Shown: piece by piece, positions 1 to 27,599 of the stretch
Position numbering within the stretch: the stretch's first letter is position 1
Layout: each line of letters begins with the position of its first letter
IMG/VR virus record: IMGVR_UViG_3300043642_000037
Location: 1-64,000 of that record
Source of the DNA: a virus
Taxonomy: Duplodnaviria; Caudoviricetes
Length of the DNA: 64,000 nt
Strand: one strand, 5' to 3'
Program-made: the position numbers and the translations under genes
The notes under the pieces: model-generated
Seen by the model: the letters and a program-made list of their open reading frames with translations, nothing else
Told to the model about the DNA's origin: nothing
The model's database searches: none

Positions 1-127
1 CGATTCGCCATGAGGTTCTCGGCGGAAACAAAACTGCATGTGGCATGTCCGTCTTCGTGTTTGACGAATCACAGGTTCGGAGTGTCAGGGACGTCGACTG
101 CATGACTTGCCTGGTCAAGCGGGGCGC
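1..127 (+). repeat. Exact 127-bp direct repeat, copy 1 (copy 2 at 1468..1594); may extend upstream of the window
   Basis: Base-by-base identity of 1..127 with 1468..1594. Confidence 0.95.
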
Positions 128-134
128 CACCTGA
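1..134 (+). CDS. 5'-truncated member of the H..C..VDCMTCLV mini-protein family
   Basis: The frame from nt 3 reads IRHEVLGGNKTACGMSVFVFDESQVRSVRDVDCMTCLVKRGAT*, the same C-terminal domain as 1173..1604. Confidence 0.75.
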   Translation, partial: IRHEVLGGNKTACGMSVFVFDESQVRSVRDVDCMTCLVKRGAT

Positions 135-293
135 CATACCCCTCGAGCGGTTCAGATCCCCGCCGCGAACGCGGATCGACAGACCAAGCCGAGTCACCAG
201 GCGCTCTATACGACCAAAATCGTACCGATCGCCAACCTCGATCATCACCTGGTCGAACACGGGGCCGGGGTAACATGCTTATAGGATAAGAAC

Positions 294-650
294 ATGGCGG
301 ATGACTTTGAGTTCGACCCATGGCAGTACAGGGACGGCTGGGAGAGCGAGCGCACGTTCACGGACCCGAACGGCGTCACGCACGAGGCGCTCCTCGCGAC
401 GCTCACCCCGCACCCATCCATCGACGCGCTCTCCCTGTGCGGGATCATCCGAACGCCTCCGATCGTCATCGACAAGACCATCGACAAGCTGCGCGTCCTC
501 GCGGGCTCCACCGCGGCCGATGGCGTCGACTGCATGACCTGCATTGTCGCCCGCGTCCGCATCGACAACATGATGGAGGACGCCCCGCCGGGGCTCAACC
601 CCAACTACCCGTTGATCACGCTGGACGTGAGGATAACCTCGTGGTCGTGA
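294..650 (+). CDS. VDCMTC-family putative zinc-binding protein
   Basis: GVTH...SLCG...VDCMTCIV; preceded by the palindrome GCTTAT-AGG-ATAAG. Confidence 0.8.
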   Translation: MADDFEFDPWQYRDGWESERTFTDPNGVTHEALLATLTPHPSIDALSLCGIIRTPPIVIDKTIDKLRVLAGSTAADGVDCMTCIVARVRIDNMMEDAPPGLNPNYPLITLDVRITSWS

Positions 651-859
651 AGCCTGTCGACGTCAACTGCATGGCCTGCCTGGTGACCGGCGTGGACACG
701 CCCATCGGCTGGCGAGACCCGTTGGGCATTGTCCACCGCGTGCGCTGGCGGACGCGCGGCGGGTGCTACAAGCTGTGCGACTTTCGCGACGACGCCAAGA
801 TGCGCGACGGCGCCAGGCCCATCGACGTCGACGCGCTGATCTCGGTGGAGGAGCCATGA
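647..859 (+). CDS. VDCMTC-family protein, permuted order (CxxC first)
   Basis: GTGA overlap with the previous stop; MKPVDVNCMACLV...GIVH...KLC. Confidence 0.7.
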   Translation: MKPVDVNCMACLVTGVDTPIGWRDPLGIVHRVRWRTRGGCYKLCDFRDDAKMRDGARPIDVDALISVEEP

Positions 860-1176
860 AGGAACATATGAAATCCAACGACACCAACGTACTGATCGGT
901 AAATTTGTTATCGTCCGCTCCAATGGCGCCGGAGTTCTCGCAGGAACCCTCGAAGCAAGGAGAGGGGACGAGGTGGTGTTGAAGAACGCCTATCGCATTT
1001 GGCAGTGGGGCGGCGCGAACACGCTAACCGAACTTGCCCTGCGAGGCGCGAGCATGGAGCAAACCACCCGTATCAGCGAGCCGTTAACAGGATTGCAACT
1101 AGTCCTCCACGTACTGGAGGTGTTAGAGACTTCGGCGGATGCCCAGCGCAACCTTTCCACCCCGAGGTGGCTGTGA
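856..1176 (+). CDS. Conserved phage protein (DUF6948-like)
   Basis: IGKFVIVRSNGAGVLAGTL...VVLKNAYRIWQWGGANTLTELA pattern; ATGA-coupled; followed by a G-D/Y-G repeat gene, as is usual for this family. Confidence 0.7.
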   Translation: MKEHMKSNDTNVLIGKFVIVRSNGAGVLAGTLEARRGDEVVLKNAYRIWQWGGANTLTELALRGASMEQTTRISEPLTGLQLVLHVLEVLETSADAQRNLSTPRWL

Positions 1177-1604
1177 CTTCTTGGTTGGTCAACGACGGCA
1201 ACGGCAACGGCTACGGCGACGGCTACGGCGACGGCTACGGCGGCGGCAACGGCAGCGGCGGCGGCAACGGCAACGGCAACGGCAACGGCGACGGCAACGG
1301 CGACGGCTACGGCGACGGCTACGGCAACGGCCACGGCAGCGGCGGCGGCAACGGCTACGGCGACGGCAACGGCGACGGCAACGGCGACGGCGACGGCTAC
1401 GGCTACGGCAACGGCGACGGCAACGGCGACGGCAACGGCGACGGCGGCTTGTTCACCGAGGACCTCACGATTCGCCATGAGGTTCTCGGCGGAAACAAAA
1501 CTGCATGTGGCATGTCCGTCTTCGTGTTTGACGAATCACAGGTTCGGAGTGTCAGGGACGTCGACTGCATGACTTGCCTGGTCAAGCGGGGCGCATGCCC
1601 ATGA
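1173..1604 (+). CDS. Gly-Asp/Asn/Tyr repeat protein fused to a VDCMTC domain
   Basis: GNGYGDG repeats followed by RH...TACG...DVDCMTCLV; GTGA start overlap. Confidence 0.8.
   Translation: MTSWLVNDGNGNGYGDGYGDGYGGGNGSGGGNGNGNGNGDGNGDGYGDGYGNGHGSGGGNGYGDGNGDGNGDGDGYGYGNGDGNGDGNGDGGLFTEDLTIRHEVLGGNKTACGMSVFVFDESQVRSVRDVDCMTCLVKRGACP
1195..1447 (+). repeat. Imperfect hexanucleotide (GGC-NAC) tandem repeat encoding G-N/D/Y
   Basis: Visible ggcaac/ggcgac/ggctac run. Confidence 0.95.
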
Positions 1605-1834
1605 AAAACCAACGAACCCACGCTCTCGGCGTCCCGCTTCGCAGGCCCGGCAAGTTCCGCAGACAGGTCCGCATCGACCGCATCACCCACGCGTACAACA
1701 ACGGATACGTGAAGACGCAGACGCTGTGCGGGATTCTCTACACCCACAAGGAGCACCTGGTGAGGAACCGAACCATGCTGGCCCGGCGGACGTCGAGGGA
1801 CGTCGACTGCATGACATGCCTGGTGCTGCTATGA
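1601..1834 (+). CDS. VDCMTC-family protein
   Basis: RITH...TLCG...DVDCMTCLV; ATGA overlaps at both ends. Confidence 0.8.
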   Translation: MKNQRTHALGVPLRRPGKFRRQVRIDRITHAYNNGYVKTQTLCGILYTHKEHLVRNRTMLARRTSRDVDCMTCLVLL

Positions 1835-2070
1835 TCGTCGCCGGCATCGACCCCTCCTACGACCGAATCCTGGCCGCCTACCGGGGCGATCTGCAGGTCC
1901 GGATCAACGAAGTCATCCACGGCCACGACGGAAAGGCAGGCCTGCCTCGCACGCGGTGCGGCATTCGCTGGATCGCGGGCGTCATAGTGCCGCAGACGTT
2001 CCCGCGGGGCGTTCCCACCGAGGACGCCGTGGACTGCATGACGTGCCTGGTGCTCGAGGCGCGATCATGA
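1831..2070 (+). CDS. VDCMTC-family protein
   Basis: EVIH...TRCG...AVDCMTCLV; ATGA overlaps. Confidence 0.8.
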   Translation: MIVAGIDPSYDRILAAYRGDLQVRINEVIHGHDGKAGLPRTRCGIRWIAGVIVPQTFPRGVPTEDAVDCMTCLVLEARS

Positions 2071-2255
2071 CGCCGAACCTGCGCCTGGCGAACGACGCGG
2101 TCGTCCACCACAGGGACCCGGACATGGTCTGGATGGCGACCCTGTGCGGCCTGCGAAGGACGTCCGAGGACCGCGCCGCCCACAGGCTGACGCAGACCGC
2201 CGACGCAGTCGACTGCATGACCTGCCTGGTCCTCAAGGCGCAGAGACCCCCGTGA
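2067..2255 (+). CDS. VDCMTC-family protein
   Basis: AVVH...TLCG...AVDCMTCLV. Confidence 0.8.
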   Translation: MTPNLRLANDAVVHHRDPDMVWMATLCGLRRTSEDRAAHRLTQTADAVDCMTCLVLKAQRPP

Positions 2256-2592
2256 CGCGAGACGTGGACTGCATAGCCTGCCTGGTCAAGCTCGCGCGTG
2301 GGTGTCCGACGACCGGACGGGCGAGGATCCCCCATTCTGGGGCCGAATCATCGTGACCGGCGGGATCACCCGCGCGACCCACAGGCCTGGCGGCGATGTC
2401 AACTGCATGGCCTGTCTTGTCAAGCGCGCAGAGGGATGCCCGACCTACGACTGCATGGCGTGCCTGGGGCTCGTTAGACGGCCCATGAGGGCGGATCAAC
2501 CTCGGGGCCCACGGGACCAATCGAAACGGCGGACAGGTCGGGAGCCGCGGCAAGTCCGATACCGACCGTCGCGGTGTGGCCGAAGGCGGTGA
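2252..2592 (+). pseudogene. Degenerate or fragmented VDCMTC-family remnants (three motif copies)
   Basis: VDCIACLVKLARGCPT (2252..2356), then in another frame VNCMACLVKRAEGCPT and YDCMACL; runs into a convergent gene. Confidence 0.55.
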
Positions 2593-2806
2593 TCGTGGAC
2601 AAGACGATCGGGTTGTTGAGATTGACTCCGCTCAACGAGAGCGCGACCGCCGCGGCTTCCCGAGGGTTGTCGGGATTGATGAACGTCTTTAGCGCCGCGG
2701 GATTCGACGAGCCCGGGGTCACCGGGGTCGTCAGGTCAGCCTGACCCGCGACGTTGGTGACGGAGAATGGGTAGACCAGCGCCTTGGTGACTCGAATATT
2801 GGGCAT
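2474..2806 (-). CDS. Hypothetical protein
   Basis: MPNIRVTKALVYPF...; protein-like composition, unlike the alternative frames. Confidence 0.6.
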   Translation of the reverse strand: MPNIRVTKALVYPFSVTNVAGQADLTTPVTPGSSNPAALKTFINPDNPREAAAVALSLSGVNLNNPIVLSTITAFGHTATVGIGLAAAPDLSAVSIGPVGPEVDPPSWAV

Positions 2807-2855
2807 CGGACGAAGACTACGCATGGACGAGTACGGAACGCAAGGGCCGGCCGGC

Positions 2856-3188
2856 TCAGGCCGGTTCCCAGGTAGCCCCGGGCACCTTGTCGAAGCACTG
2901 CGCGTAGCACTTGCCGTCGCTCGGCGCGGTCCCGACGCCCGCTGTGATCGCGGCCGCGCGCTGGCCGGCGTCGAGGGCGACGTACGTGACGTTCGAGCCG
3001 TCCGCCGGCGTGCGAACGTTCGCGGCGGGGCACGCGACCGTGGCGATGTTGTCGTTCAGGAAGGCCTCGAGGTCCGCCTGGTCGACGTTGCTCACCAGGT
3101 GGCACCAGTTGTCGTTGTTGGGGTTGATTCCCGGGGGATGGAAGTCCCCCATGGTGTGGTGGACGATGGGGCCGATGTATCGGGTCAT
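2856..3188 (-). CDS. DUF4031-like protein
   Basis: WCHLVS...DLEAF...YVAL...RAAAITAG pattern. Confidence 0.55.
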   Translation of the reverse strand: MTRYIGPIVHHTMGDFHPPGINPNNDNWCHLVSNVDQADLEAFLNDNIATVACPAANVRTPADGSNVTYVALDAGQRAAAITAGVGTAPSDGKCYAQCFDKVPGATWEPA

Positions 3189-3404
3189 GGACCCGGTTCG
3201 TACCACGCGAGGTTTACGAGGTAAACACGGAGCGCGAGGCGTCGACGCGCTAGAAGACCTTCACCGTGCGGCCGGCCATGACCCACAAGGTCACCAGGAT
3301 GCCGCACCACATGAGCGCGCGGCCGACCTCCGCGACCTTGGTGTTCGACGCGAGCGCGTGGATGAGCACGCCCACGACCGCGACGAGCAGGGGAACGATG
3401 GCGA

Positions 3405-3581
3405 TCATCGGGAGAGGCTAGCATGCTCGACGAGTGTGGGACTGTGCGTTACGGCTTCCCGAACCCGAACGTCGAGCCAGTCGCGAACGACATCATCGAG
3501 GCTGAGCCCCTTGCGCCGTGCGAACGCCGTGAGGGCTGGGATCAGCAGCGCGGGGAGTTGGACTTCTACCAGGGTCGCCAT
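3405..3581 (-). CDS. Ribbon-helix-helix (CopG-like) DNA-binding protein
   Basis: VEVQLP...ALTAFARRKGLSLDDVVRDWL. Confidence 0.5.
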   Translation of the reverse strand: MATLVEVQLPALLIPALTAFARRKGLSLDDVVRDWLDVRVREAVTHSPTLVEHASLSR

Positions 3582-3904: not shown

Positions 3905-4153
3905 ATGCCGGATAGTCACCTGGTGAACTGCATGAACTGCCTTGTGTCGCCCAGCATGCAGAGTCTCGAGATCGAGCTTGCGTCGCCGGACTTGCAAGTC
4001 GCGCGGATTCGCGGGGTCACGCACGCGGTGCGGTCGAGAAACGCGAACCAAAAAATCATCGCGGGGTGGACCCTGTGTATGCTGGAGTTTCGACGCGTCG
4101 GCGACAGCAACGTCGAGTGCAACGGCGAGAGTTGGGCTATTCCGATTGAGTGA
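3905..4153 (+). CDS. VDCMTC-family protein, permuted order
   Basis: LVNCMNCLV at the N-terminus, then GVTH...TLC; GAGG RBS upstream. Confidence 0.7.
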   Translation: MPDSHLVNCMNCLVSPSMQSLEIELASPDLQVARIRGVTHAVRSRNANQKIIAGWTLCMLEFRRVGDSNVECNGESWAIPIE

Positions 4154-4583: not shown

Positions 4584-4620
4584 GTTTACTAGGTAAACAC
4601 GTCTCGCGATGGCGAACAAG

Positions 4621-5445: not shown

Positions 5446-5469
5446 AAAAAACGACCAACCTTCGTTTAG

Positions 5470-6010: not shown

Positions 6011-6012
6011 AC

Positions 6013-6600
6013 ATGCCTGCCCTAGACACTCACAGAAAACTGAGGCCGCACCCCACCGCGCGGCTTGCGGATAATCTCCCACCTGCAGGTCTTGTGGCTC
6101 GGTACATCATACCTGTAGGCCAAGGACCGAACGCGCCCCACCTCTTCTGGGTGGACCGTAAACCGAACCGCGGATTCGATGCGGGGGGGCAGGCGACGTT
6201 CCGTTGGCGGGACCGCACCTACAACGTCGCACGTGTCCTGCTTCAGCACCGGCTCAAGCACCGGGTGGTTCGTGCGGTGAACGCGTGCGGTCTGCCTCAA
6301 TGCGTGAAGCCCGAGCACTGGAGCGTCGAGCCCGCGTTCCTGGGCGTGGTCGCGCGGCCGGCGGGGCTCGCCACGGTCAAGGTCGGCGACGCGTGGCGGC
6401 TGTCGATCGGCGGCGCGATCGTCGATCGGGACATGGTGTTCGTGGCGACCATTCAGCTCCGGGGTAGTCTTCGCCACATCGTGCGAGCCCTGCGCGAGGA
6501 CGCCGAGACCGCGTTCCTCACGGCGTGCGGCCAGCTCGCCGACCCCGCGCTCGTGGTCGCGTCGTCGGAGGACGCGACGTGTCCGGGCTGCGTGTCGTGA
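6013..6600 (+). CDS. Degenerate HNH-like domain plus C-terminal H..TACG..CPGC zinc site
   Basis: NACGLPQCVKPEHW resembles the HNH C-x4-CVNPxHL motif; C-terminal RH...TACG...ATCPGC. Confidence 0.6.
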   Translation: MPALDTHRKLRPHPTARLADNLPPAGLVARYIIPVGQGPNAPHLFWVDRKPNRGFDAGGQATFRWRDRTYNVARVLLQHRLKHRVVRAVNACGLPQCVKPEHWSVEPAFLGVVARPAGLATVKVGDAWRLSIGGAIVDRDMVFVATIQLRGSLRHIVRALREDAETAFLTACGQLADPALVVASSEDATCPGCVS

Positions 6601-6779
6601 GCGGTCTCGCGCAGTCATTCTTTCGCAAGGCGGGCGTCGTTCACGTCGGTCGCGTGGTCGGCAACTGCGTTCGGCTCCTCTGCGATCCGTTTTCTCCGTC
6701 GCTGAGGTCCTCCGTTCTCTACACGGAAGATCCAGTCGACTGCATGAACTGTCTGGTGAAGGAAGCAAGGAGACTATGA
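6597..6779 (+). CDS. VDCMTC-family protein
   Basis: GVVH...LLCD...PVDCMNCLV; GTGA overlap. Confidence 0.75.
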   Translation: MSGLAQSFFRKAGVVHVGRVVGNCVRLLCDPFSPSLRSSVLYTEDPVDCMNCLVKEARRL

Positions 6780-9473: not shown

Positions 9474-9709
9474 AACCGATCGCGATCTTGTTATTCGTAT
9501 CCGCGTGCATCGACGCGCGTTCCAGCGCTGTGCGTTCCAGCGCCGTTGATCTGTGCGGCGATCCGCCTGTGATCCGTGGGACAGCGGTCTTTGCGACCAC
9601 TGTACAGGACCAGAACTATTTCTGCTTCCTGGATGACGGTCAGTTGCAGCTCGAGGCGGACATCAGCCTGACTCGTCAGTGGGTGCAGTGTGTTATCGAA
9701 GCCCGTTGA
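9470..9709 (+). CDS. Small lipoprotein
   Basis: MKPIAILLFVSAC lipobox-like; GTGA coupling. Confidence 0.55.
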   Translation: MKPIAILLFVSACIDARSSAVRSSAVDLCGDPPVIRGTAVFATTVQDQNYFCFLDDGQLQLEADISLTRQWVQCVIEAR

Positions 9710-10001
9710 CGCCGGGCTCGAGGCCTTCGTCGAGAAGGTGCTGCCGACGGCCAGGCCTCGGTGTGTTGTGAGGCCTCGGTTCGTTCACAATAACGTCGTC
9801 CACCTCGGGCACCGCGTGGACACCGAGGACGGGTCTCGGGTCTACTTCCTGTGCGAGAATAAGATGCTTCTCGGCGCGTTGTTCGGCGGGCCTGGACACG
9901 ACAAGCTGCCGATGTACGAGCCGGGCGTTGAGGCGTTCCACGTCTTCGACGACGCGGATTGCATGACGTGCATTGTGGTCGAGGGGCGGCGTCGTGGCTG
10001 A
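9690..10001 (+). CDS. VDCMTC-family protein (start uncertain)
   Basis: NVVH...FLCE...DADCMTCIV. Confidence 0.7.
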   Translation: MLSKPVDAGLEAFVEKVLPTARPRCVVRPRFVHNNVVHLGHRVDTEDGSRVYFLCENKMLLGALFGGPGHDKLPMYEPGVEAFHVFDDADCMTCIVVEGRRRG

Positions 10002-10205
10002 GCGCGTCCTCTACGAGGGTATGGTCCACTTGGCCGAGCGCGTGATGATAGGCATTGACTGGAAGCAGGCTCCTCGACGCGGGAGCCGTTCGTCAGGTTT
10101 CTCTGCACCGAGCTGCTTCACCCTGTGAAGTCGGCCGAGTTCGCTCGCGCCGACGTCAACTGCATGTCGTGCCTGGTGACCCGGGCGCGAAAGGAGACAG
10201 GATGA
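9994..10205 (+). pseudogene. Frameshifted VDCMTC-family gene
   Basis: MAERVLYEGMVH... in one frame, FLCTELL...DVNCMSCLV...* in another. Confidence 0.6.
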
Positions 10206-10465: not shown

Positions 10466-10479
10466 AAGGTCGATGACCA

Positions 10480-10770
10480 ATGTTCGCATTCGGTGACAAG
10501 GAGTGGCCCGGCATCGCCAAGCTCAACGAGGAATCTGGCGAGCTGGTGCAGGTGATCGGCAAGCTCATGATGACGCACGGCAAGGCCGAGTACTGGAACG
10601 GCGTCGACCTCCGGGTCAACCTCGTCCAGGAGATGGCCGACGCCGCCGCGGCGATCGACTTCGTGATGGAGCACGCGCTGACCGAGGTCGAGCGTCACAC
10701 GCTGATCGCCCGGCTCAAGGAGAAGTTCGCGCTGTACGAGACGTGGCACGCGGAGCAGGCTGCGCCGTGA
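10480..10770 (+). CDS. MazG-like nucleotide pyrophosphohydrolase
   Basis: KLNEESGEL...K...QEMAD all-alpha NTP-PPase motif. Confidence 0.75.
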   Translation: MFAFGDKEWPGIAKLNEESGELVQVIGKLMMTHGKAEYWNGVDLRVNLVQEMADAAAAIDFVMEHALTEVERHTLIARLKEKFALYETWHAEQAAP

Positions 10771-10795
10771 CGTGCCTTGTTCGCTTGGTGCCGCA

Positions 10796-11161
10796 ATGAG
10801 GAATAAGCGCAAGCGGGCGAACGCGGTGATCGTCGACGGCATCGTTCACGCGATCGGCAAGCTCGAGCCCGAGCAGCGGTTCGTCGCCGCGATAGACGAG
10901 CCCGCAGCCAGGCTCTGGATGGGCGCGCTTGGGGAATACCCGCTGCGTCGAAGTACGCGTGCTCAGCGCAAGGCGGACAAGGCCCGCGCGATTCGCGAGC
11001 GGCTCGAGCCGCGGGTGAGCCTGCTGTGCGACGCGCAGCCCCGCATGATCCTGGCGTGGCCTGGTCAGACGCCGTTCCGTCTGCCGCCGTGGCGTCGCGT
11101 GCCCCGCACGCACGCGTTGGTTAACTGCATGGCGTGCCTGGTCGCAGGGAGCCGAGCGTGA
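10796..11161 (+). CDS. VDCMTC-family protein
   Basis: DGIVH...LLCD...LVNCMACLV. Confidence 0.75.
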   Translation: MRNKRKRANAVIVDGIVHAIGKLEPEQRFVAAIDEPAARLWMGALGEYPLRRSTRAQRKADKARAIRERLEPRVSLLCDAQPRMILAWPGQTPFRLPPWRRVPRTHALVNCMACLVAGSRA

Positions 11162-11556
11162 GGAAGTCGATGCTCCACGGCAACCGAGCGTGGCGGCCGA
11201 TCCGCGCCGTCGCGGGCATCGTGCACCACGCGACTCCGCTGACCAAAAAAGAGGCGGAGTACCTGTTTCGCCTGGCCGACACTGTCCGCGCGGTCGTCGA
11301 GTGCGGAGAGTGCGGTGCCAAGGTCGGCGCGGAGTGCGTGCGCAAGAAGGACAAGCAGCCGATGGCGAATCACAGCTACCGGGTTCGCCAGGCTCGCCTG
11401 CTGTTCGAGCAGCGCGTCCTGCCCAAGCTCGATCGTCTGCACCAGACGCTGTGCACCGCGGGGTCGGGACCCGGTCACGTGGTTTTCAACCAGGCGGACG
11501 ACCCGGACGTCGATTGCATGTCGTGCCTGGTCGTCATAGCCAAGCAGCAAGGGTGA
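11158..11556 (+). CDS. VDCMTC-family protein with a nested CxxC..C..H zinc finger
   Basis: GIVH...[CGECGAKVGAEC...NH..R]...TLC...DVDCMSCLV. Confidence 0.75.
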   Translation: MRKSMLHGNRAWRPIRAVAGIVHHATPLTKKEAEYLFRLADTVRAVVECGECGAKVGAECVRKKDKQPMANHSYRVRQARLLFEQRVLPKLDRLHQTLCTAGSGPGHVVFNQADDPDVDCMSCLVVIAKQQG

Positions 11557-12521
11557 CAATATGAAACTCATGGTCGCGATTCTCGTTGTGCTTTCTGCCT
11601 GCAAGGCCCGCGTGGTGCAATGGGACGGCATTCCTGCCGACATCGTCAACGTCGAGACCGTCTGCCCGGCGAAGCCGTGATGCAAGGCCTCGATCGAACG
11701 CTGGTCACCGAGGGCTATCCGACCGAGCCCGGCCTGCACCTGCTGTGGTCGGATCACAACGGGTGGCCGGTCATCGCCATCGTGCGCGTGCAGGTTGGCG
11801 ACAATCGCGCGGTCACGTGGTGGCAGGGCGTCGGCGGCACGGACCGCTGGCAGGGGCTTCCGAAGATGTTCCGCTTCGCCTACGACAAGTACCTCGGCGG
11901 CTCGCGCTGCTCGCCCGCGGCATTCGCTCACTACGAGGCCTTGTGGGCTCGAACGTCCGACGAGGTCAAGGCGATGCTTGCCAAGGCGCGCTTGTGAGCG
12001 CGCCTTTCCTCGGTCACGACGATCCCCTGCCCGGCGCCATGAGCGAGCTGGTGTCGGCGCAGTCGTCGCTCAACATGCACGCCGACCCGATTCCGGGCGC
12101 GACCGGCTACGTTAGCGAGACCGACGCCAACGTCAAGCACGCGATGGAGCACATCCACGCCGCGTTCGAGCTGCTGGACAGGGCGTGGAAGGCCCGCGAG
12201 GCCGATCGCACGAAGTTCCATCGCGCGCAGCAGAAGCTGTCCGAGCGCTCGCCGAACGCGGGCTGCGCCGAGTACGCCGGCGCCGCCGCCGCGCTGCTCG
12301 CGCTTGATCGCCGGGGACTCTCGGAGTCCGACGAGGCCGAGGCGCTGCGGGACTCGATGGACGCGCGGTGGTACGGGATGTCGGGCGCTGACCAGGCGCA
12401 CGCGCGGGCGCTGGTCGCCCTCCTGGCCGAGCAGTTCGAGAGCGCCGGGCACGATCCCGGGGACGAAGCTCGCTAGACTCGTGGTTCACGAGATAAACTT
12501 CTCAGGAAAGGTCGGTGACGC

Positions 12522-12962
12522 ATGAGCTACGTCAGGAGCGCGTTTTTCGTCGTGCTGGGCCTCGTCACGGGGGCCGTGGTTGAGTTGTCGATCGTGCGCG
12601 CGGTTCGCGACGAGAAGGCCGGGCCGCCGACGCTGTCCGTCCATCACGAGCGTACGTCGACCGTCCGCTCGCGGTGCGACGAGTGTCCTCAGCCGGGCGA
12701 CGTGATCAAGGCCAGCGTTCGCGGGCCCTCGAGCATGGTGCGCGGCGTCTCCGTGTATCGCGAGGAGGGGTTCGTCAGGAGCTGCTTCGGCTGCGACGAC
12801 CTTTCGATGACCGCTGACCTGCTGGGTCGCTACCTGGTGGTCGGGTTCCAGATGAGCCGCGCGGCCTCGTGCGTGCTGCCCTGCGGGAGCTACGACGGCG
12901 ATGTCGTGGCGCTTCAGCGATGCGGCGCGGTCTTGGTCACGTCGGAAGTCATCATTCGATGA
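12522..12962 (+). CDS. Membrane-anchored Cys-rich protein
   Basis: N-terminal hydrophobic helix and several Cys; palindrome upstream at 12484. Confidence 0.55.
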   Translation: MSYVRSAFFVVLGLVTGAVVELSIVRAVRDEKAGPPTLSVHHERTSTVRSRCDECPQPGDVIKASVRGPSSMVRGVSVYREEGFVRSCFGCDDLSMTADLLGRYLVVGFQMSRAASCVLPCGSYDGDVVALQRCGAVLVTSEVIIR

Positions 12963-13842
12963 GCGAGTGCCAGGGCTTTCGCTGCGACCGCTGCGGCGTC
13001 CGAACGCTGGCTTCGGAGGACGGCTCCAACACCCCGGACGGCTGGAGCGTGATCAAGGTCATGCGAAAGAGTCCGTTCCACGCCGCGCTAAAAGACCTCT
13101 GTCCGGAGTGCACCGAGCTGGTGTTCTCCGCGCTTTACGTAAGGACTGTCCCATGAACAACAAGGCTCCGACGACCACTCAGATTGGCATGCCAGCCGTG
13201 TCGCGCTCGCCCGCGCGGATCGCGGCGGACCCGGTCCGTCTTCTTCGCTTCGCCCGCAAGGCCGCCATCGTGTTCGCCGAGAGCGGTGCGCCCAACACCG
13301 CCGCGGTGTGCGAGGCCTACGTCCATGCGATGGCGGAGAACCACCACCTTCGCCGGCAGCTCGCCTCGGTCCAGGCATGGAGCGAGGAACCGACACGGCG
13401 GGTCAACTCCGAGGACCATAACCCGTTGTCCATTCCCGAAAAGGGCTCCGCCAACAACGTGAACCCAGAGCGGGAGGAGGCGGTTCTCGCCTTTGGCGAA
13501 GGACCGTCGCAGCCGTGACCGGAGATGCGCCCAGCGGTACGTTCGAGGAGGCGGTCAGGCACCGCGCGAGCGGTGTCGGGCTCGTTCCGATCGGCCTGAT
13601 CAAGCGGCTGACGCCGGCCGAGTGGGGTCAGATACGAGTGCTGACCCAGGGCGGGGCTCGGCGCCTCGTGGCCATCTACGACGCGGCCCCGCCGATCGCG
13701 TCGCGAACCAAGACGCCGACGATGGACTCGTCGGCGATCGATCGGCTGCTGAAGGAGGTCGAGCATGGGCATTGAGCACCAGGAGGCCGAGCGGCTGGCC
13801 GCGCGGCTCGAGGCGACGGCTGAACGAAAAGGAAACCAGAGC

Positions 13843-15921: not shown

Positions 15922-16195
15922 ATGAATCCGCGCGCCATCATTGACGCGGAAACGCGCGGCTTTCGCACGCGACCGATTCGGTGGCGACGCGCGACGGAAC
16001 ACTTCGTCAGCTCTCACTGCGGCTTCTGGCACATCACACCGATTTATGGCGGATTGACGCGTCCAGAGTCGTACGAGCTGTGGTTCGGTGCGAGTGCGCG
16101 CAGACGGGTCGGAAGCGGTCAAACGCAGCGCGAGTGCAAGGCCGTCGCGGAAGACCTGTAGTCCAGTTTCAACCAGGTTGACAACAGAAAGAGAA

Positions 16196-16606
16196 ATGAC
16201 CATGCAGAACATCTTCGAGTACGCCACCCGCAACAAGCTCCGCTTCACGTCCGTCCGCGGGGTGATGTCCGTCGAGCAGCTGTGGGACATTCCGCTCCGC
16301 TCGCGCGATGGGTTCGATCTCAACGCCGTCGCCAAGGCCGCCAACAAGGCGCTCGGGGACGCGTCGGAGGAGAACTTCGTCGAGACCACGAAGTCGGCGG
16401 CGCACGCCTACTGCGAGGCGGTCCTGGAGATCGTCAAGTACGTCATCAACGTCAAGGTCGCCGAGGAGGAGGCCGCGAAGACGCGCGCCGCCAAGAAGCA
16501 GGAGAAGGAGAAGCTGCTCGCCATCCTCGCGGAGAAGCAGGACGGCAAGCTGTCCGAGCTGTCCGAGAGGGAGCTGCAGAAGCGCATCGCCGCGCTGGAC
16601 GACTAA
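16196..16606 (+). CDS. Conserved phage coiled-coil protein (probable partner of the previous gene)
   Basis: NIFEYATRNKLRF.S.RG...VEQLWD.PL; Lys/Glu-rich tail. Confidence 0.7.
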   Translation: MTMQNIFEYATRNKLRFTSVRGVMSVEQLWDIPLRSRDGFDLNAVAKAANKALGDASEENFVETTKSAAHAYCEAVLEIVKYVINVKVAEEEAAKTRAAKKQEKEKLLAILAEKQDGKLSELSERELQKRIAALDD

Positions 16607-16662
16607 TCCTGCGCTTTCCTCTTGGGTTTCGGCGCCGGTCGCCTTAGTTTATCCGGTAAACC

Positions 16663-16899
16663 ATGCCAAAAAAGACCAAGGCGCCCGGCGTCAAGCGTTC
16701 CCCCGAGGACATCCAGAAGTTGATGGACAAGTTCGTCGGCTTCGTCAAGAAGAACCCCGGTCTGCGCATCGAGCAGATCAACGCTCAGCTTGGCACGAGC
16801 ACCAAGGACCTGGTGATCCCGGTCCGGCGACTCATCGCTGCCAAGCAGATCCGGACCAAGGGGGAGAAGCGAGCGACGACTTACGAGGCGAAGCGCTGA
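16663..16899 (+). CDS. Small basic wHTH DNA-binding protein of myxobacterial type
   Basis: KRSPED...NPGLRIEQI...LG.STKDL..P...L......KGEKRATTY. Confidence 0.65.
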   Translation: MPKKTKAPGVKRSPEDIQKLMDKFVGFVKKNPGLRIEQINAQLGTSTKDLVIPVRRLIAAKQIRTKGEKRATTYEAKR

Positions 16900-17177
16900 C
16901 GTGTCGCGCCTGTTCGAGCCCAGCTTGGTGTACCCGTCCGACTCCGAGGGCGGGCGCTACGTCGAGTTCGAGGGCCCCGTCGTCGAGGTCGGCGCGCCCC
17001 TCGACGCGACCAGCGACTTCCTGGAGACGCCGGTCACCGTGCGGACCGAGAAGGGTGACCTCCGTGGGTGGGCGAGCTTTCCGGCGCGATGGGGAGCGCC
17101 CGCGGTCGGAGACCGAGCGACCATCAGGGTGTACGACAGCGGGGGAGGCTGGTACCCCGACGACAAGGTCACAGGCT

Positions 17178-17250
17178 GGATCCGTGGCGCAGCGGTCAGA
17201 GCGGACGGCGCGTAACCGGTTTATTCCTGGTGAAAATCCAGGCGGGTCCA
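17178..17250 (+). tRNA. Degenerate tRNA-like gene (Thr, anticodon CGU if functional)
   Basis: Acceptor GGATCCG/CGGGTCC; T arm CCTGG-TGAAAAT-CCAGG; mismatches in D and anticodon stems; G at position 33. Confidence 0.5.
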
Positions 17251-17368
17251 CCGGCCTCGAACCAGGCCTTACAGGGAGTGCGGGCGCGTTGGTCAACGTG
17301 ACCCCGCGTGCGCCCCAGGTTACCAAACGTCAGGGTTCAAGGCGTGACAGCCGGAGAGACGGCGCTTC

Positions 17369-17455
17369 GACCGGGTAGCTTAGCGGCAGAGCCCGTGCCC
17401 CGCCATGATGCTGCGGGACAACCACGGAACGCAGGTTCAAGTCCTGCCCCGGTCA
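17369..17455 (+). tRNA. tRNA-like RNA with an enlarged anticodon arm
   Basis: Acceptor GACCGGG/CCCGGTC; TAGCTTAGCGGCAGAGC D arm; GCAGG-TTCAAGT-CCTGC T arm; 25 nt between CCGTG and CACGG. Confidence 0.6.
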
Positions 17456-17473
17456 CGCTACGATAGGGATCCG

Positions 17474-17770
17474 ATGCCCCTCCCTCGATTCTTCCAGCTC
17501 AACGACCTCAGCGACGAGCGGCACTGCCTGGTCGTCGCGGAGGACCTGGATCACGCTCGTCAGGTAGTTCGCGACGTCGCCATGGAGTTCGACGGCGAGT
17601 ACGCGTACCGCCTCGACGAGGCAGAGGCTCGAGGCATCGCCGTGTGGATGGAGCTGGCTGACACGGACGCGGCGCGGAACTCGGTGCGCACCAGCCTGAG
17701 CGCGCGCGGTCACATCGCGCGGCCGCTGGTCCAATGCGAGCTGTGGGAGTGGTTCTCGACGATCGATTAG
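17474..17770 (+). CDS. Hypothetical protein between tRNA genes
   Basis: MPLPRFFQLN...; its stop codon overlaps the 5' end of tRNA-Arg. Confidence 0.55.
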   Translation: MPLPRFFQLNDLSDERHCLVVAEDLDHARQVVRDVAMEFDGEYAYRLDEAEARGIAVWMELADTDAARNSVRTSLSARGHIARPLVQCELWEWFSTID

Positions 17771-17834
17771 CTCAGCCGGACAGAGCGGCGCTTTCCTAAA
17801 GCGCAGGTCGCAGGTTCGACTCCTGCATCGATCA
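17761..17834 (+). tRNA. tRNA-Arg(CCU)
   Basis: Full cloverleaf: GATCGAT/ATCGATC, GCTC/GAGC, GCGCT-TTCCTAA-AGCGC, GCAGG-TTCGACT-CCTGC; no encoded CCA. Confidence 0.9.
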
Positions 17835-17845
17835 CGGAGGCATTG

Positions 17846-18220
17846 ATGGCGAACAAGCTGAAGGCACAGAACCAGGAGATCCGGGCCGAGATCGCGAGGA
17901 AGATCGCGGAGGACCTCAGGCGGAAGAATCCCGGCTGGTCGCCGCAGAAGATCAACGACGCGGCTTTCAAGGCCGCGGATCTGCAGATCAAGCAAGGCTA
18001 TGCGAAGCCACCCAAGCCGTTGGCGGCGACCCCCGAGCCCAAGGAGGCGGAGGCGCGGGACGCGCTTGCACGAAAATGGGCCAAGGCGCTGGCACGGCAG
18101 AATCCGAGCTGGTCCGAGCAACGCGTTGGAACGGCTGCCTACAGGGCCGCAGACGATCAAATGCGACGAGATGCAGGCGAGGTCACGGAGGTCGACGCCT
18201 CACACGGTTCGCGACGTTGA
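17846..18220 (+). CDS. Protein with an internal duplication (RKIA..L.RKNPGWS / RKWA..L.RQNPSWS)
   Basis: GGAGG RBS; two similar helical repeats. Confidence 0.6.
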   Translation: MANKLKAQNQEIRAEIARKIAEDLRRKNPGWSPQKINDAAFKAADLQIKQGYAKPPKPLAATPEPKEAEARDALARKWAKALARQNPSWSEQRVGTAAYRAADDQMRRDAGEVTEVDASHGSRR

Positions 18221-19066
18221 GCACCGTCGACGTGGTCGTGATGGACGTGTTCGACTCGACGTCGAAGCTCTGCGCGGATCTCGCGAGGGCGCTGTGCTCG
18301 CGCGGCTACAACGTCAATCACCTGCGCGAGGCGTCGGCCAAGAAGGCGACGCGCTACCTGGTTCGATGACTCGCCCGACGGACGCAGTAGCGGTCACGAG
18401 GACCAGAAGGCCGCCTCGACCGCCGCCTCGACCGCGACCACGTCCAGCTGGGGTTGCACACGCGGACGACGGATGCGCACGGTGATCGCCTCCGGGTCTG
18501 AGCGCGCGTCTTGCGCGGGGTCGAGCGGGGCCCGCAGATTTTTCGCGCTCTGTCGACCTACAAGTCCCTGTATCAACGAAATTAGGCGCATGGCATTGAA
18601 CAACAGCAATAACGAGACCAAGAGGACGGCCGCGTTCGAGATCGGCGACAAGGTCGAGCACACGAACTCGCATCGAATCGGCGCGGTCCAGGAGGTCCGT
18701 CCCTGGCGTGACGGCACGCTCGAGCTGCGCGTGCACGTCGAGGCGCTCGACGTCTGGTGGAATTCTCAGCACGTCAGGAACCTGACTGAGGAAAACGTTA
18801 TGAAGATGCTAGAGGTCACGATCACAATCAAGCTGAAGGTCCGGGACACCGACGATAAGCTCAGCGATTGCCTGGCTGCCATGGACGCGGCGAAGGACCT
18901 TCTGGCCGAGACGCCGGGGCACGTGCTGCTCCGCGCCCGCCAAGGTCAGTTCGGCGGGACGCTGGTGTCGATAACGCGGTTGCGGCGGATGCGGTGGGGC
19001 GGGATCATGGACGCCGGCGAGTCCTCGCCGCCGCTCGCGGTCGACGCGTCCGTCGAGGAGTAGTCG

Positions 19067-19816
19067 ATGCCTCGCGAGACACCGAAGCTTGTCCTGACGT
19101 CGGCGAAGGCCGCCGCGACCACGTACTCGTTTCAGACGACCGGGGATGGGTTCAGGTCCTGGGCCCTGTGCACGGTCAACGACCAGACGGGTGAGCTGCT
19201 CATCACGAGCGACTGGGGCAGCTGGTCGCATCGCTGGCACGCCTCTCCTGAGGCGCTCGGCGCGCCGACGCTGACCGCGTTCATCGGCGGTCGCGGGGAC
19301 ATCGACTACCTCGCGCGCAAGCTCCAGAAGGAGGGCCGCGCGGGCGTGTGCTTCTCCGCGCTGAAGACGGCGCGGGAGCTGAACCGCCTGCTCTGCGCCC
19401 GGCGGCTCGAGGATGGTCGCGAGCAGCTGGAGAACCGGCGCGAGCCGGAGGACTGGGGGCGCCAGCGGGACCGCTACACGGAGGCCGGGCTTCCCCTGTT
19501 CAGTCATCGCACGGTACCGACACCGAGCTGGAAGGATCCGACGCGGACCGAGCGGCTTCGGTACCTGACCGCGGAGAAGGCCCGCGAGCTGTGGGACGCG
19601 ATCGAGTCTCTGGGCGACGAGTGCGATCGCAGCTCGGACCTGTTCTGGGAGCGTCTGCCCTCGATCTCCGGGTTCACCGACTACGTCACCGACGATCCCT
19701 GGGGGCACGGGCAGACCGAGCAGACCTTCGAGGACAAGGCGCTGCGCGACATCGTGCTGCCTGCGCTGATCGCGGCGTGCAAGACGGTAGCGGCGGCGCG
19801 CGAGGAGGCCCCGTGA
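19067..19816 (+). CDS. Conserved phage hypothetical protein
   Basis: GELLITSDWGSWSHRW...DYLARKL pattern; GAGGAG RBS. Confidence 0.6.
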   Translation: MPRETPKLVLTSAKAAATTYSFQTTGDGFRSWALCTVNDQTGELLITSDWGSWSHRWHASPEALGAPTLTAFIGGRGDIDYLARKLQKEGRAGVCFSALKTARELNRLLCARRLEDGREQLENRREPEDWGRQRDRYTEAGLPLFSHRTVPTPSWKDPTRTERLRYLTAEKARELWDAIESLGDECDRSSDLFWERLPSISGFTDYVTDDPWGHGQTEQTFEDKALRDIVLPALIAACKTVAAAREEAP

Positions 19817-20250
19817 GCGACACGTACTACTACTACTACTACTACTACTTCGAGTGCCTGAACTGCGACTGCGGGCGCGACGTCGTTCTCGACATCCGGG
19901 TCAAGGATGGCGGGAAGGCGTTCATCGCCTTCGACTGTCCGGTCTGCCGCAAGCCCATGGACTTTCGCGGGCGGGACGCCGCTGACGCCGACGGCTACCC
20001 GGTCCGCGTGCAGCCTGAGCTGGTCCGCGAGATGATCAAGCTCGTGTGGATGCAGGTCGGCAGGATGAAGAACCCGTGGACCAACGTCGCGATGTCCGCC
20101 GACGACGATGCGGCAATCCAGCGCGCGCTGACTTGGTATTCGATGCAGATCGAGCTGGGTCGCGCGATGTTTGCGGTCGTCTGCGGCGGAGAGACCGCGA
20201 CCGAGAAGCTCCTGCGACGGGGCCTCGATTTCCTGCGGGGGCGACCGTGA
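19813..20250 (+). CDS. Zinc-ribbon protein with a poly-Tyr tract
   Basis: (TAC)8 at 19825..19848; CLNC...CPVC. Confidence 0.6.
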   Translation: MSDTYYYYYYYYFECLNCDCGRDVVLDIRVKDGGKAFIAFDCPVCRKPMDFRGRDAADADGYPVRVQPELVREMIKLVWMQVGRMKNPWTNVAMSADDDAAIQRALTWYSMQIELGRAMFAVVCGGETATEKLLRRGLDFLRGRP

Positions 20251-24081: not shown

Positions 24082-24675
24082 ATGCGCTACTACCTGGACA
24101 CTGAGTTCGACGAGGACAAGGATCACCTTGTCCTGTTGAGCTTTGCGCTGCGCGCCGCCGACGGGCGCGAGCTGTACCTGGTCTCGACGGACTTCAGCAC
24201 TGCGACATGCACCCCGTGGGTGCAGGCCAACGTGCTTCCGCATCTGCACGCGCTCGCCTCAAAGGGCGACCTGCAAGCTGCGTACCTCATGTCCAAGGAC
24301 CGGTTCGCCGAGCAGATCGAGCTGTTCCTCTGCAACGACGGGAGCCCCGAGTTCTGGGGCTACTACTGCGCCTACGACTGGTTCCTGTTCTGCCGGCTGT
24401 GGGGTGGCATACTTCGAATGCCCAACCGCTTCCCGAAGGTCTGCTACGACCTCGAGCAGCTCGCTGGCGTCCTGCTGCCAGGCGTGAGCTACAAGAGCGA
24501 CAACCCGCCGGAGCAGCCGGAGCACAACGCGCTGGCCGACGCCCGCTGGAATGACCAGCTGTTTCGGTGGATCCTGGAGAAGGCAGATGCGCAGGCTGAG
24601 CGCGACGGTCATCAAAGCCCCGAGCTGCGGCGCGGGGTCGACTCGTTTATATCAAACGCGAGGTTCACCAAATGA
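24082..24675 (+). CDS. DEDDh 3'-5' exonuclease (Rv2179c/RNase AS-like)
   Basis: YYLDTEF, WGYYCAYDW, HNALADARW. Confidence 0.85.
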   Translation: MRYYLDTEFDEDKDHLVLLSFALRAADGRELYLVSTDFSTATCTPWVQANVLPHLHALASKGDLQAAYLMSKDRFAEQIELFLCNDGSPEFWGYYCAYDWFLFCRLWGGILRMPNRFPKVCYDLEQLAGVLLPGVSYKSDNPPEQPEHNALADARWNDQLFRWILEKADAQAERDGHQSPELRRGVDSFISNARFTK

Positions 24676-25180: not shown

Positions 25181-25567
25181 GTGATCACGGCCGACCAGCT
25201 GCTCCTTCACATCGTCGGCGACTACGTCATCCAAAGTGATTGGATGGCCACCGAGAAGACCAAGCGCAGCCTCGCCGCTCTCGCGCACGTCGTCTCCTAC
25301 GCGCTGCCGTTCCTCCTGCTCACGCGATCGATCGCCGCGCTGGCGGTGATCGCCGGCACCCACTTCGTCATCGATCGGTGGCGGCTCGCGCGGTACGTGT
25401 GCTGGGCGAAGAACCGCGTCTGGCCCGGCTGGCGACCGTGGTCCGAGTGCGTCGGGACTGGGTACCCGGCGGATCGGCCGCCCTGGCTCACGACGTGGCT
25501 GATGATCGTCGTCGACAACACGATGCACGTGGTCATCAACGGCGCGGCGCTGAAGTGGCTGGCGTAG
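25181..25567 (+). CDS. DUF3307-family membrane protein
   Basis: HIVGDYVIQSDWMA..K, H...Y, THF.ID, DN.MH. Confidence 0.8.
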   Translation: MITADQLLLHIVGDYVIQSDWMATEKTKRSLAALAHVVSYALPFLLLTRSIAALAVIAGTHFVIDRWRLARYVCWAKNRVWPGWRPWSECVGTGYPADRPPWLTTWLMIVVDNTMHVVINGAALKWLA

Positions 25568-25756
25568 CCCCGGCGCACGACGTGCCCGCGGCGGGGACCC
25601 TCGTGCAGATATCGTACTGCGCCCGGTGCGGCGCCGCGTACTTCGACCGCGGGCCGTGCGTTCCCGACGGTCAGGAGAAGATCCGGCGTCGCGCTCCGCC
25701 GTTGCCGAGCCGACGATAGGGATGGACTTGCCGCGCGCGGTGCGTATCTTGTCCTC

Positions 25757-26086
25757 ATGGGCCTGCCTGTCAACCACGCGCTCCGAGGCGTCGCCGAGCC
25801 GACGCTCGACGAGGTCATGCGCCTGGTCGAGTTGGCGGACACCGGCGGGCACTGGTACTGGCTCGGTGATGTCGCCAGGGATGGTCTCGACCCGGTCCCG
25901 GTGATCAAGCGGGACGGTAGCCAGTGGGTCGTCGTCCGGCTCCTGGTCCCCGCGACTGGACGGGTTCGCCGCGTGAACCGCTGCGGGCTCCGCACGTGCG
26001 TCAACCCGGACCACTGGGCCGTGGTTCACGTCGAGGACGGGGTGACGCTGACCGACTTTGACGGCGCCGGCTGGCGTCGAGCGTGA
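25757..26086 (+). CDS. Degenerate HNH-like protein (paralog of the 6013 N-terminal domain)
   Basis: HWYWLG...NRCGLRTCVNPDHW. Confidence 0.6.
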   Translation: MGLPVNHALRGVAEPTLDEVMRLVELADTGGHWYWLGDVARDGLDPVPVIKRDGSQWVVVRLLVPATGRVRRVNRCGLRTCVNPDHWAVVHVEDGVTLTDFDGAGWRRA

Positions 26087-26557
26087 GTTCGGCTAACGCG
26101 ATAGTTCGACCATCGGACGCGGTTTGTCGTCGGCGCATGGGTGCCTCAATTCGCTGCACGTAGGATCGCGCGAGCTGGTCCATCGTGTATATGGTGAGTT
26201 GTCCCGTCTCGATCGAGCGATGCGAGCCGGAGCGTGGAGGTGCGCGCGCGGCGTCGGCGGGTTGGCGTGGCGCCAGGGTCGGGTTCCTCCTCGCTCGAGA
26301 GACGCCTCCGAAAGGAACGACCCAATGAGCCTTCCCGAGAGCTTCATCCGACCGCCGACGCACGAGGAGACCGCCGCTGACGTCGCGGACGCCGCGGCCG
26401 TCGAGAGCCCATCTCCGGCGCCCGCGGCGCGGCTGGTCGCGCGGATGTTCTGGTGGCTGGCGCACCACGCCGTGGCTCGACCGCTCGCCCTGGTGTTTCC
26501 GGTCCGCCACATGTTCCGGTTCTCGGCGTGGACGCTCGGCCGGCGTAATATGTAGGC

Positions 26558-26824
26558 ATGAACCACGGAAGCCGACGGGGGCTGATCGGCCTCCCCGAGG
26601 GCGCCAGGCGCCCCTCTACGCCGATCGAGCGCCTGACCTTCAGGCGGGACGGAATCACGCACCGGGCCGCCAAGCAGCGCGGCGCCGGCTGCATCGGCGG
26701 AATCGACAACTGGTGGCTGGAGTCGTGCTGCGGCATCCAGGTCGTCATGACGTCGATGGCCTCGCCGACGGGGCTCGTCGACTGTATGACGTGCCTCGTG
26801 CTGTCCGACTTTCTGATCGACTAA
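26558..26824 (+). CDS. VDCMTC-family protein
   Basis: DGITH...SCCG...LVDCMTCLV. Confidence 0.8.
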   Translation: MNHGSRRGLIGLPEGARRPSTPIERLTFRRDGITHRAAKQRGAGCIGGIDNWWLESCCGIQVVMTSMASPTGLVDCMTCLVLSDFLID

Positions 26825-26839
26825 ACAAGGAGATTCGAT

Positions 26840-27103
26840 GTGATGGACGTCGACTGCCTGTGCTGCATCCCCGCCTCCGCGCCCGCGCGCGTTCGCGAGG
26901 ACGGCTCGTGGAGGGACGCCGCCGGCGTGGTTCACGCGGTGAACGCGACGGGGGTCGAGCCCGACATCGACTTCGGTCGCGAGACTGCCTGTGGCTCCGC
27001 TTCGTGGGATCCGGACAGCCCGCGTGACTATCCGGCCTCGACTGACGAGGACGTCGACTGCATGACGTGCATCGTCAGGCTGGCGAGGCCATGCCGAGCG
27101 TAG
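26840..27103 (+). CDS. VDCMTC-family protein with the motif at both ends
   Basis: DVDCLCCIP...GVVH...TACG...DVDCMTCIV; AGGAG RBS. Confidence 0.8.
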   Translation: MMDVDCLCCIPASAPARVREDGSWRDAAGVVHAVNATGVEPDIDFGRETACGSASWDPDSPRDYPASTDEDVDCMTCIVRLARPCRA

Positions 27104-27339
27104 CGGAGGTTCTGCTGCGCGCGATGACGATATCCGACGACGAGCAGCGCAGGTCATTCCTGGTGGACAACCCGGTCATCGTGCGTCGGCATGGAATGGT
27201 CCATCGGGTCGCCGGGTACGAGCGTAGGTCGGCCACCTGGATGACGTTCTGCGGAGTCTCGTACGAGGGCAACGCGTACGAGGACGACGTCGGCGAGGGT
27301 GAGATCGACTGCATGACGTGCCTGGTGGCGCGGCGATGA
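27091..27339 (+). CDS. VDCMTC-family protein
   Basis: GMVH...TFCG...EIDCMTCLV. Confidence 0.8.
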   Translation: MPSVAEVLLRAMTISDDEQRRSFLVDNPVIVRRHGMVHRVAGYERRSATWMTFCGVSYEGNAYEDDVGEGEIDCMTCLVARR

Positions 27340-27599
27340 ACGCTGACGACGCCTGGGCGCTCGGTCGACTCGTCGAGTTCCCGGAGCTGGAGGAGTGCAC
27401 CTCTGTGCGCGTGACGATCGATGGGATCACGCATCGCGCGCTGAGCGAGGACGCCACCGGATGGCGGACCCTCTGCCGGTCGCACCGCTTGGCTGTCTTC
27501 GGCGGCCGCGCGTACGCCATCATCGGTGTGCCGCTGCACACCTACGACTTCTCTGCAGCCGACGTCGACTGCCTGTGCTGCATCCCCGCAGGGGGATGA
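27336..27599 (+). CDS. VDCMTC-family protein
   Basis: DGITH...TLC...DVDCLCCIP; ATGA overlaps. Confidence 0.8.
   Translation: MNADDAWALGRLVEFPELEECTSVRVTIDGITHRALSEDATGWRTLCRSHRLAVFGGRAYAIIGVPLHTYDFSAADVDCLCCIPAGG

Follow-up and report, generated by a model that had tools for sequence, protein, structure and literature searches.

Co-directional arrays of paralogous genes in the terminal genome arms of eukaryotic viruses, such as the multigene families MGF110, MGF360 and MGF505 of African swine fever virus and the ankyrin and BTB families of poxviruses, are thought to be host-facing. Among described protein domains, zf-HC3 (PF16827) is a short zinc-finger family of small stand-alone proteins, for which the designation HC3 points to one His together with three Cys. 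In the current study, we analyzed a window of 64,000 nucleotides (nt), i.e., positions 1–64,000 of the 156,126-bp linear IMG/VR virus record IMGVR_UViG_3300043642_000037 (Caudoviricetes; CheckV completeness of 84%), whose source is an uncultured soil phage with a genome GC content of 65% and a size of roughly 180 kb. The first 27.6 kb of this window carry an array of small genes sharing a VDCMTCLV-type motif. Their products share one scaffold, a previously unnamed domain of about 55 residues with one His, one Cys and a CxxC pair (H-C-CxxC), and are similar in length to zf-HC3 proteins. The likeness to the multigene families of eukaryotic viruses is by analogy only, the folds, hosts and gene sizes being unrelated. 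Based on the sequences, we propose that the array may encode a panel of zinc-stabilized mini-binders for host takeover or counter-defence, a proposal to which we give an even chance as a whole.

Motif copies and coding capacity

A six-frame pattern scan recovered 19 strict copies of [VIL][DN]C[MILV]xC[LIV][VPI], all on the + strand between positions 93 and 27,564; the − strand and the rest of the record (128 kb) lack such copies. A looser pattern, DCxxC[LIVM], contributes the copies at 2449 and 9957 and thus brings the total to 21, all within 93–27,589, besides one unrelated match at 39,128. The copies cluster at 0–2.6, 3.9, 6.7, 9.9–11.5 and 26.8–27.6 kb, in 18–19 open reading frames (ORFs) of 26–143 amino acids (aa). 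This agrees with the original prediction, made from the letters of the window, of about 21 clustered copies in about 19 ORFs on the + strand. A profile hidden Markov model (HMM) of the family, a search of the rest of the genome that the original prediction had suggested, recovered the same gene set and nothing further.

These motif genes almost certainly constitute a real protein family. The GC content at third codon positions (GC3) is 0.78–0.94 for 14 of the 18 gene models, with lower values for members G and H (0.71–0.72) and member J (0.70). Starts are preceded by GGAG-type Shine-Dalgarno sites or overlap the preceding stop as ATGA or GTGA, and most of the genes are coupled in the latter way, as had been noted before. 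Synonymous codon use within the motif equals the genomic background (GAC 82%, TGC 85%, a mix of CTG and CTC), which indicates that the motif is conserved as a peptide and not as DNA, as originally argued. Besides, the ratio of nonsynonymous to synonymous substitution rates (dN/dS) is 0.14–0.57 for orthologue pairs between the record and other contigs, i.e., the window genes that have orthologues are under purifying selection.

The members of the array are the following, with E-values for the match to the family HMM and with pLDDT for the predicted local distance difference test:

3..134, + strand: truncated first member, cut by the contig start; keeps the mid Cys and VDCMTCLV; E-value 8e-10
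294..650, + strand: member A, 118 aa; domain, then a C-terminal extension; GC3 0.92; relative P0011 is of equal length
641..859, + strand: member B, 72 aa; circularly permuted (CxxC, then GIVH, then Cys)
1173..1604, + strand: member C, 143 aa; N-terminal Gly-rich GNGDGY repeat, then the domain
1601..1834, + strand: member D, 77 aa; E-value 3e-19; ATGA overlap on each side; dN/dS 0.20–0.57
1831..2070, + strand: member E, 79 aa; the modelled member; E-value 2e-17; pLDDT 82.9; dN/dS 0.26–0.41
2067..2255, + strand: member F, 62 aa; E-value 3e-16; GC3 0.94
2252..2356, + strand: member G, 34 aa; CxxC helix and GCP only; GC3 0.71
2353..2592, + strand: member H, 79 aa; degenerate, with two CxxC motifs and an Arg-rich tail; GC3 0.72, GC content at second codon positions 0.66
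3905..4153, + strand: member I, 82 aa; circularly permuted, with two partial HMM matches in permuted order
6579..6779, + strand: member J, 66 aa; E-value 4e-14; GGAGG 7 nt upstream of the start
9738..10001, + strand: member K; start uncertain (9690, 9738 or 9768); motif ADCMTCIV; dN/dS 0.17–0.34
9994..10205, + strand: member L; frameshift near 10,065–10,075, with the GMVH half and the C...VNCMSCLV half in different frames
10796..11161, + strand: member M, 121 aa; long His–Cys insert; P0033 shares this architecture
11170..11556, + strand: member N, 128 aa; insert with an additional CxxC...C; dN/dS 0.36
26558..26824, + strand: member O, 88 aa; E-value 5e-12; orthologues 82–94% identical, dN/dS 0.15–0.27
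26843..27103, + strand: member P, 86 aa; a CxxC motif at each end, the first being one copy of a 29-nt repeat
27091..27339, + strand: member Q, 82 aa; E-value 4e-13; dN/dS 0.14–0.33
27336..27599, + strand: member R, 87 aa; VDCLCCIPAGG subtype; dN/dS 0.24–0.38

Irregular members, a correction to the original prediction, are the frameshifted member L, the apparently degenerate pair G and H (2252–2592) and the truncated first copy. The orthologue of member L, P0110, is an intact 71-aa protein, and an independent assembly of a soil run has no indel at the frameshift site. Compared with the full-length permuted genes of a second phage (an 89.6-kb IMG/VR contig), member G seems to be a shortened gene of the permuted type; the orthologue of the permuted member B in that phage is 70% identical (dN/dS 0.48). 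A 12/18-nt periodic repeat at 1153–1499 encodes the GNGDGY tract of member C, and a weak Pfam match to TrAA12 at this Gly-rich tract is probably compositional. The C-terminal subtype of member R also occurs in the relatives P0029, P0089, P0117 and P0138.

Domain architecture and predicted structure

In the alignment of 13 window paralogues, the start Met, the His, the Cys and the CxxC are invariant, and the D, M and V of the motif are nearly so; the invariance of H, C and CxxC holds likewise in a separate alignment of 110 single-domain members from public data. All four residues are present in 400 of the 411 distinct domain sequences used for the statistics of ligand spacing. The His-to-Cys distance ranges from 5 to 56 residues (median 14) and the Cys-to-CxxC distance from 12 to 46 residues (median 23). 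The H-C-CxxC set with loops of variable length, as first described from the window, therefore stands, and it extends to a subfamily of circularly permuted genes. These comprise members B and I together with some nine consecutive genes of the second phage, and they begin with M-x-D-V-D-C-M-T-C-L-V, followed by G-I-T-H and then by the single Cys. The retention of the same four residues in permuted order argues for a single metal site.

An AlphaFold prediction, also suggested at the outset, was obtained for member E with the 110-sequence alignment and reached a pLDDT of 82.9 and a predicted template modelling score of 0.71, with the four residues in segments of high confidence (block-mean pLDDT of 87–95). 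In the model, an N-terminal helix precedes a beta-hairpin bearing the His; short strands surround the mid Cys, and after one more strand the CxxC opens the C-terminal helix (pLDDT 95). Judging from the conserved residues and this model, the family probably binds a metal ion, with zinc as the most likely one.

The conservation of the motif is not confined to its cysteines, as D is conserved in 137 and M in 143 of 154 motifs, and the T/A/S position nearly as strongly as the cysteines themselves. This is what would be expected if D-C-M-T-C-L-V were an element or active site read by one partner (a modifying enzyme, a chaperone or a packaging factor), or a redox or iron–sulfur centre, with the rest of the protein as cargo. 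A CxxC at the N-terminus of a helix, the arrangement predicted here, is also typical of thiol-disulfide oxidoreductases, and short motif genes without the His or the mid Cys do exist (members G and H). However, these motif-only genes have weak coding statistics, and the His and the mid Cys, widely separated in sequence, show equal invariance. Because the motif begins a predicted core helix and hence forms no free tail, the loose shared tag that the original prediction had offered as an alternative appears less likely, and the permuted members bear the motif at the N-terminus. In addition, Pfam revealed no gene of a radical-SAM, YcaO, lanthipeptide-type or thioredoxin-like kind among 20 neighbouring ORFs of the window or among the Pfam-annotated neighbours in two relatives. 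Overall, we regard a motif read by a common partner, or acting as a reactive centre, as quite improbable, and a structural metal site as the better description of the four residues.

Relation to known families

No Pfam or PHROGs family reached threshold, consistent with the original statement that no named family was recognized. A sequence profile search of the Protein Data Bank (PDB) returned no relative, and Foldseek against the PDB gave only E-values above 1. The structure search VIA-align reached Z-scores of at most 2.6, to assorted small beta-barrels (KOW, Hfq/Sm, PAZ and the tRNA-binding domain of PylRS). Neither Foldseek against BFVD nor an Atlas search yielded a significant named match, the weak top rows in BFVD being A0A219YA55 (probability 0.96, template modelling (TM) score 0.52) and small actinophage proteins. 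A literature search on zinc multigene families of phages gave nothing relevant.

The family zf-HC3 was the only Pfam family matched more than twice among the 110 members (three matches, best E-value 0.013). By sequence features, the nearest Pfam-bearing Atlas cluster of member E (score 0.84) is a 78-aa, mostly Actinomycetota cluster, 23% of which is annotated as zf-HC3. The same cluster is the top structural match of member O, with TM scores of 0.54/0.60 over 63 residues, in a comparison of two predicted models of which the query is poor (pLDDT 0.53). None of the 11 window members scanned (10 at E ≤1, one at E ≤10) matched zf-HC3, and no family member reached its curated cut-off of 25 bits. 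The PF16827 model found nothing at E ≤10 in six frames of the whole genome, and no zf-HC3 match was obtained in the Rhodococcus plasmid pRHL1 (1.1 Mb). Moreover, the VDCMTCLV signature, the restriction to phages and arrays of 30–60 copies are not known features of zf-HC3. By the Pfam criterion, the family described here is thus not part of zf-HC3, although a remote relationship is plausible.

Other zinc-binding and cysteine-rich domains were compared by the arrangement of their ligands. The zinc-binding anti-sigma (ZAS) domain (H-x3-C-x2-C) does not fit. In it, a His precedes the CxxC by four positions; here, this position is Asp in 46 of 154 motifs, followed in frequency by Ala, Arg, Glu, Gly and Lys, with His outside these six commonest residues, and the invariant His lies at least 30 residues upstream of the CxxC. 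The WhiB-like iron–sulfur proteins of actinobacteria and actinophages (C-xn-C-x2-C-x5-C) were also rejected, the ligand set here being one His and three Cys with a different spacing, and Whib is absent from the 25 Pfam families matched by the 110 members (28 matched at E ≤10) and from those of the scanned window members. Zinc ribbons and treble clefs contain two knuckles with two close ligands each; the domain described here has a single CxxC knuckle and a His and Cys separated by a median of 14 residues.

Distribution and copy number in related phages

An exhaustive profile search among 1.84 billion representative proteins returned 146 clusters at E ≤1e-3, none of which has a name or a Pfam domain. 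One cluster (P0107) looks spurious, and nearly all others are proteins of 58–159 aa with the family signature, some of them with two domains. A search for longer fused forms found one 200-aa protein without a Pfam domain and no informative fusion. A 23-base degenerate DNA pattern of the motif had a single match among 185,579 species genomes, located in an unrelated 491-aa frame of a metagenome-assembled genome of 50% GC, where nothing resembling the family domain surrounds it. Judged by this exact pattern, the family goes undetected in cellular genomes and occurs in phage contigs only. The 23-base pattern also picks out many copies on the 89.6-kb contig of the second phage, and a 20-base form yielded 111 stretches in metagenomes, with family domains at 51 loci, on one strand per locus. 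When member E was searched by tblastn in 50,697 phage records, nothing meaningful emerged, and megablast of positions 12,000–20,000 of the window gave no match.

The array-bearing relatives have a GC content of about 64% and come from soil or groundwater samples. Comparing arrays between related phages, another check raised by the original prediction, revealed far more domains than in the present record, as counted with the family HMM:

89.6-kb IMG/VR contig (second phage): 59 domains over 37 kb, all on one strand
179-kb NCBI contig: 29 domains over 20 kb, all on one strand
204-kb ENA contig: 50 domains over 20 kb, all on one strand

Divergence of the paralogues

Paralogues within a genome are only about 30–37% identical over the domain. 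For the 89.6-kb and 179-kb contigs, which are mutually closest relatives, the nearest relative of a member lies in another genome for 31 of 44 and 26 of 27 members, respectively, with median best scores of 74–96 bits between genomes vs 32–34 bits within them. The fraction is lower for the more distant 204-kb contig (17 of 45 members), and for the window members the between-genome score margin is small. We conclude that the expansion is old and that the individual copies have been maintained. The "hypervariable" cassettes of the original prediction are thus better described as old paralogues, of which the window genes with orthologues are under purifying selection. In agreement with their maintenance, the block of members O, P, Q and R is syntenic on a 24.7-kb contig, at 58–89% identity. 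The orthologues of members D, E and F are 57–72% identical vs about 70–90% for flanking genes, and the family orthologues thus evolve faster than the genes around them.

A further possibility is that the array is driven mainly at the DNA level, with the motif of 20–30 bp acting as a recombination site by which mini-gene cassettes are shuffled, permuted and duplicated, and with many copies being selfish or decaying passengers. Features of this kind are indeed present. A perfect 29-nt direct repeat, encoding the rare variant DVDCLCCIP, occurs at 26846–26874, at the start of gene P, and at 27561–27589, at the end of gene R, and thus brackets a three-gene block; an exact repeat of 127 nt is found at the contig start. 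Some members are permuted, truncated or frameshifted or carry two motifs, and motif copies are sites at which assembly graphs break and mis-join. However, the codon choice in the motif follows the background and reveals no extra nucleotide constraint, the orthologue pairs are under purifying selection, and most members of the two closest relatives are nearest to another genome instead of being recent local duplicates. We therefore consider it highly unlikely that the array is primarily a recombination system. Recombination at the motif may shape the array, yet it leaves the retention of the proteins unexplained.

The record is broken within the array

The number of copies in the window is affected by the position of the record ends. 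In a tblastx comparison with the reverse-complemented 89.6-kb contig, the first 8.2 kb of the latter match the right end of the record (147,271–155,919), mostly at about 70–90% amino-acid identity, while its 44.2–49.3 kb segment matches the left end (632–3,424). The intervening 36 kb, which contain most of the family genes of that contig, are without a counterpart here. Besides, the 127-nt direct repeat is exact (1–127 equals 1468–1594, 100%), so that the contig starts inside a repeat of the size of an assembler k-mer. Considering this bridging contig together with the completeness of 84%, the relatives of 179–204 kb and the 127-nt repeat, we infer that the two ends of the record adjoin in the phage itself and that the stretch missing between them measures about 30 kb and probably contains many family genes. 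The virus record is thus broken within the array and under-counts the family, and the 18–19 copies reported here are a lower bound.

Proposed function

Based on the conserved residues and the predicted fold, the His, the Cys and the CxxC knuckle, with which the C-terminal helix begins, most likely coordinate one structural metal ion, probably zinc. Repeated duplication has multiplied the domain in a lineage of phages from soil and groundwater whose contigs measure about 180–200 kb. The copies are co-directional in one genome arm, and their stop/start overlaps suggest that they are probably translated together from long transcripts. Such a layout is typical of early or host-directed regions, and we hypothesize a corresponding timing from gene position only. 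While the presumed metal core is constant, the copies differ in their N-terminal extension, in the two loops between the ligands and in surface charge. This combination of a fixed core with variable loops, extensions and charge points to a panel of stable mini-proteins as the most likely function, with each of them binding its own target during infection in the service of host takeover or counter-defence. Taken alone, this binder role is a tentative assignment, to which we give somewhat less than an even chance.

The charge of the members also bears on the possibility that they are nucleic-acid-binding zinc fingers, i.e., small regulators of transcription or RNA that each recognize their own phage or host sequence, comparable to the zinc-finger expansions of eukaryotes. 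The isoelectric point (pI) ranges from 4.1 to 11.5. About a third of the members (35%) are basic and 17% lie above pI 9.5, with members D, H and M at 11.1–11.5, and the weak fold matches mentioned above involve small beta-barrels, a type of fold frequent among nucleic-acid binders. None of these fold matches is significant, however, and 38% of the members are acidic, down to pI 4.1, which is unusual for proteins binding DNA or RNA. A phage with contigs of about 180–200 kb has, moreover, no obvious need for at least 50 regulators. The spread of charge argues against a uniform role in binding nucleic acids and is as expected of diversified protein-binding surfaces, and we consider such a regulator family unlikely.

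Some observations weigh against a panel of target-specific binders as well. In the relatives and neighbours examined, family members were not fused to any known domain, and none of the nearby genes was a conserved and specific partner. The dN/dS values below 1 and the conserved orthologues do not reveal the strong positive selection that an arms race should produce. In addition, D, M and T/A/S are nearly invariant to a degree beyond the needs of a structural zinc knuckle, which could mean a shared partner or a shared chemistry.

Neighbouring genes

The neighbours of the array genes are small genes of no assigned family, a NUDIX hydrolase, an AAA ATPase, a 2H phosphoesterase and a 718-aa phage protein. 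Features in and near the array, and one elsewhere in the record, are the following:

10480–10770, + strand: ORF without a Pfam match at E ≤0.01
13765–15921, + strand: 718-aa protein, matching phrog_1735 (E-value 8e-232); without a match in the local Pfam scan
17369–17456 and 17761–17835: tRNA-Gly(GCC) and tRNA-Arg(CCT) genes
24082–24675, + strand: sub-threshold match to an Rv2179c-like 3'-5' exoribonuclease (E-value 1.4e-4, 22 bits vs a cut-off of 27)
27596–28297, + strand: 2H phosphoesterase / 2'-5' RNA ligase-like protein (Pfam 2_5_RNA_ligase2, E-value 8e-15), directly after member R with an ATGA overlap
85814–90268 of the record (outside the window), − strand: 1485-aa ORF with the NADYDGD motif of the beta-prime subunit of multisubunit RNA polymerase

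The 718-aa protein is 43–47% identical to proteins of several hundred phages with inconsistent annotations, the hosts of which include Pseudomonas, Salmonella, Klebsiella, Bacillus, Caulobacter and others. Proteins of the DUF8224 family adjoin the arrays in two relatives, at positions similar to that of the 718-aa gene. A 51-nt repeat (94% identical) at 9703–9753 and 14906–14956 encodes GLEAFVEKVLPTA in frame at both sites, namely in the upstream extension of member K and inside the 718-aa conserved gene.

Implications

Expansions as large as those observed here (50 domains within 20 kb or 59 within 37 kb, perhaps amounting to a fifth of the genome) are rare in phages, and they concern a family that lacks a Pfam or PHROGs assignment at threshold, a solved structure and a cultured representative. 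In its most far-reaching form, our proposal would be that of a genome-encoded library of at least 50 uniform zinc-stapled mini-binders, occupying about a fifth of the genome, each directed to a different host protein, for example of a defence system or of the transcription or replication machinery; we consider this version doubtful. Should the copies prove to bind specific targets, they would reveal many points of contact between phage and host, including possible counter-defence proteins. If true, bacterial viruses would also have, in this array, an equivalent of the multigene families found in giant eukaryotic viruses, and its product would be a new natural binder scaffold, compact (55 residues), metal-stapled and tolerant of both loop variation and circular permutation.

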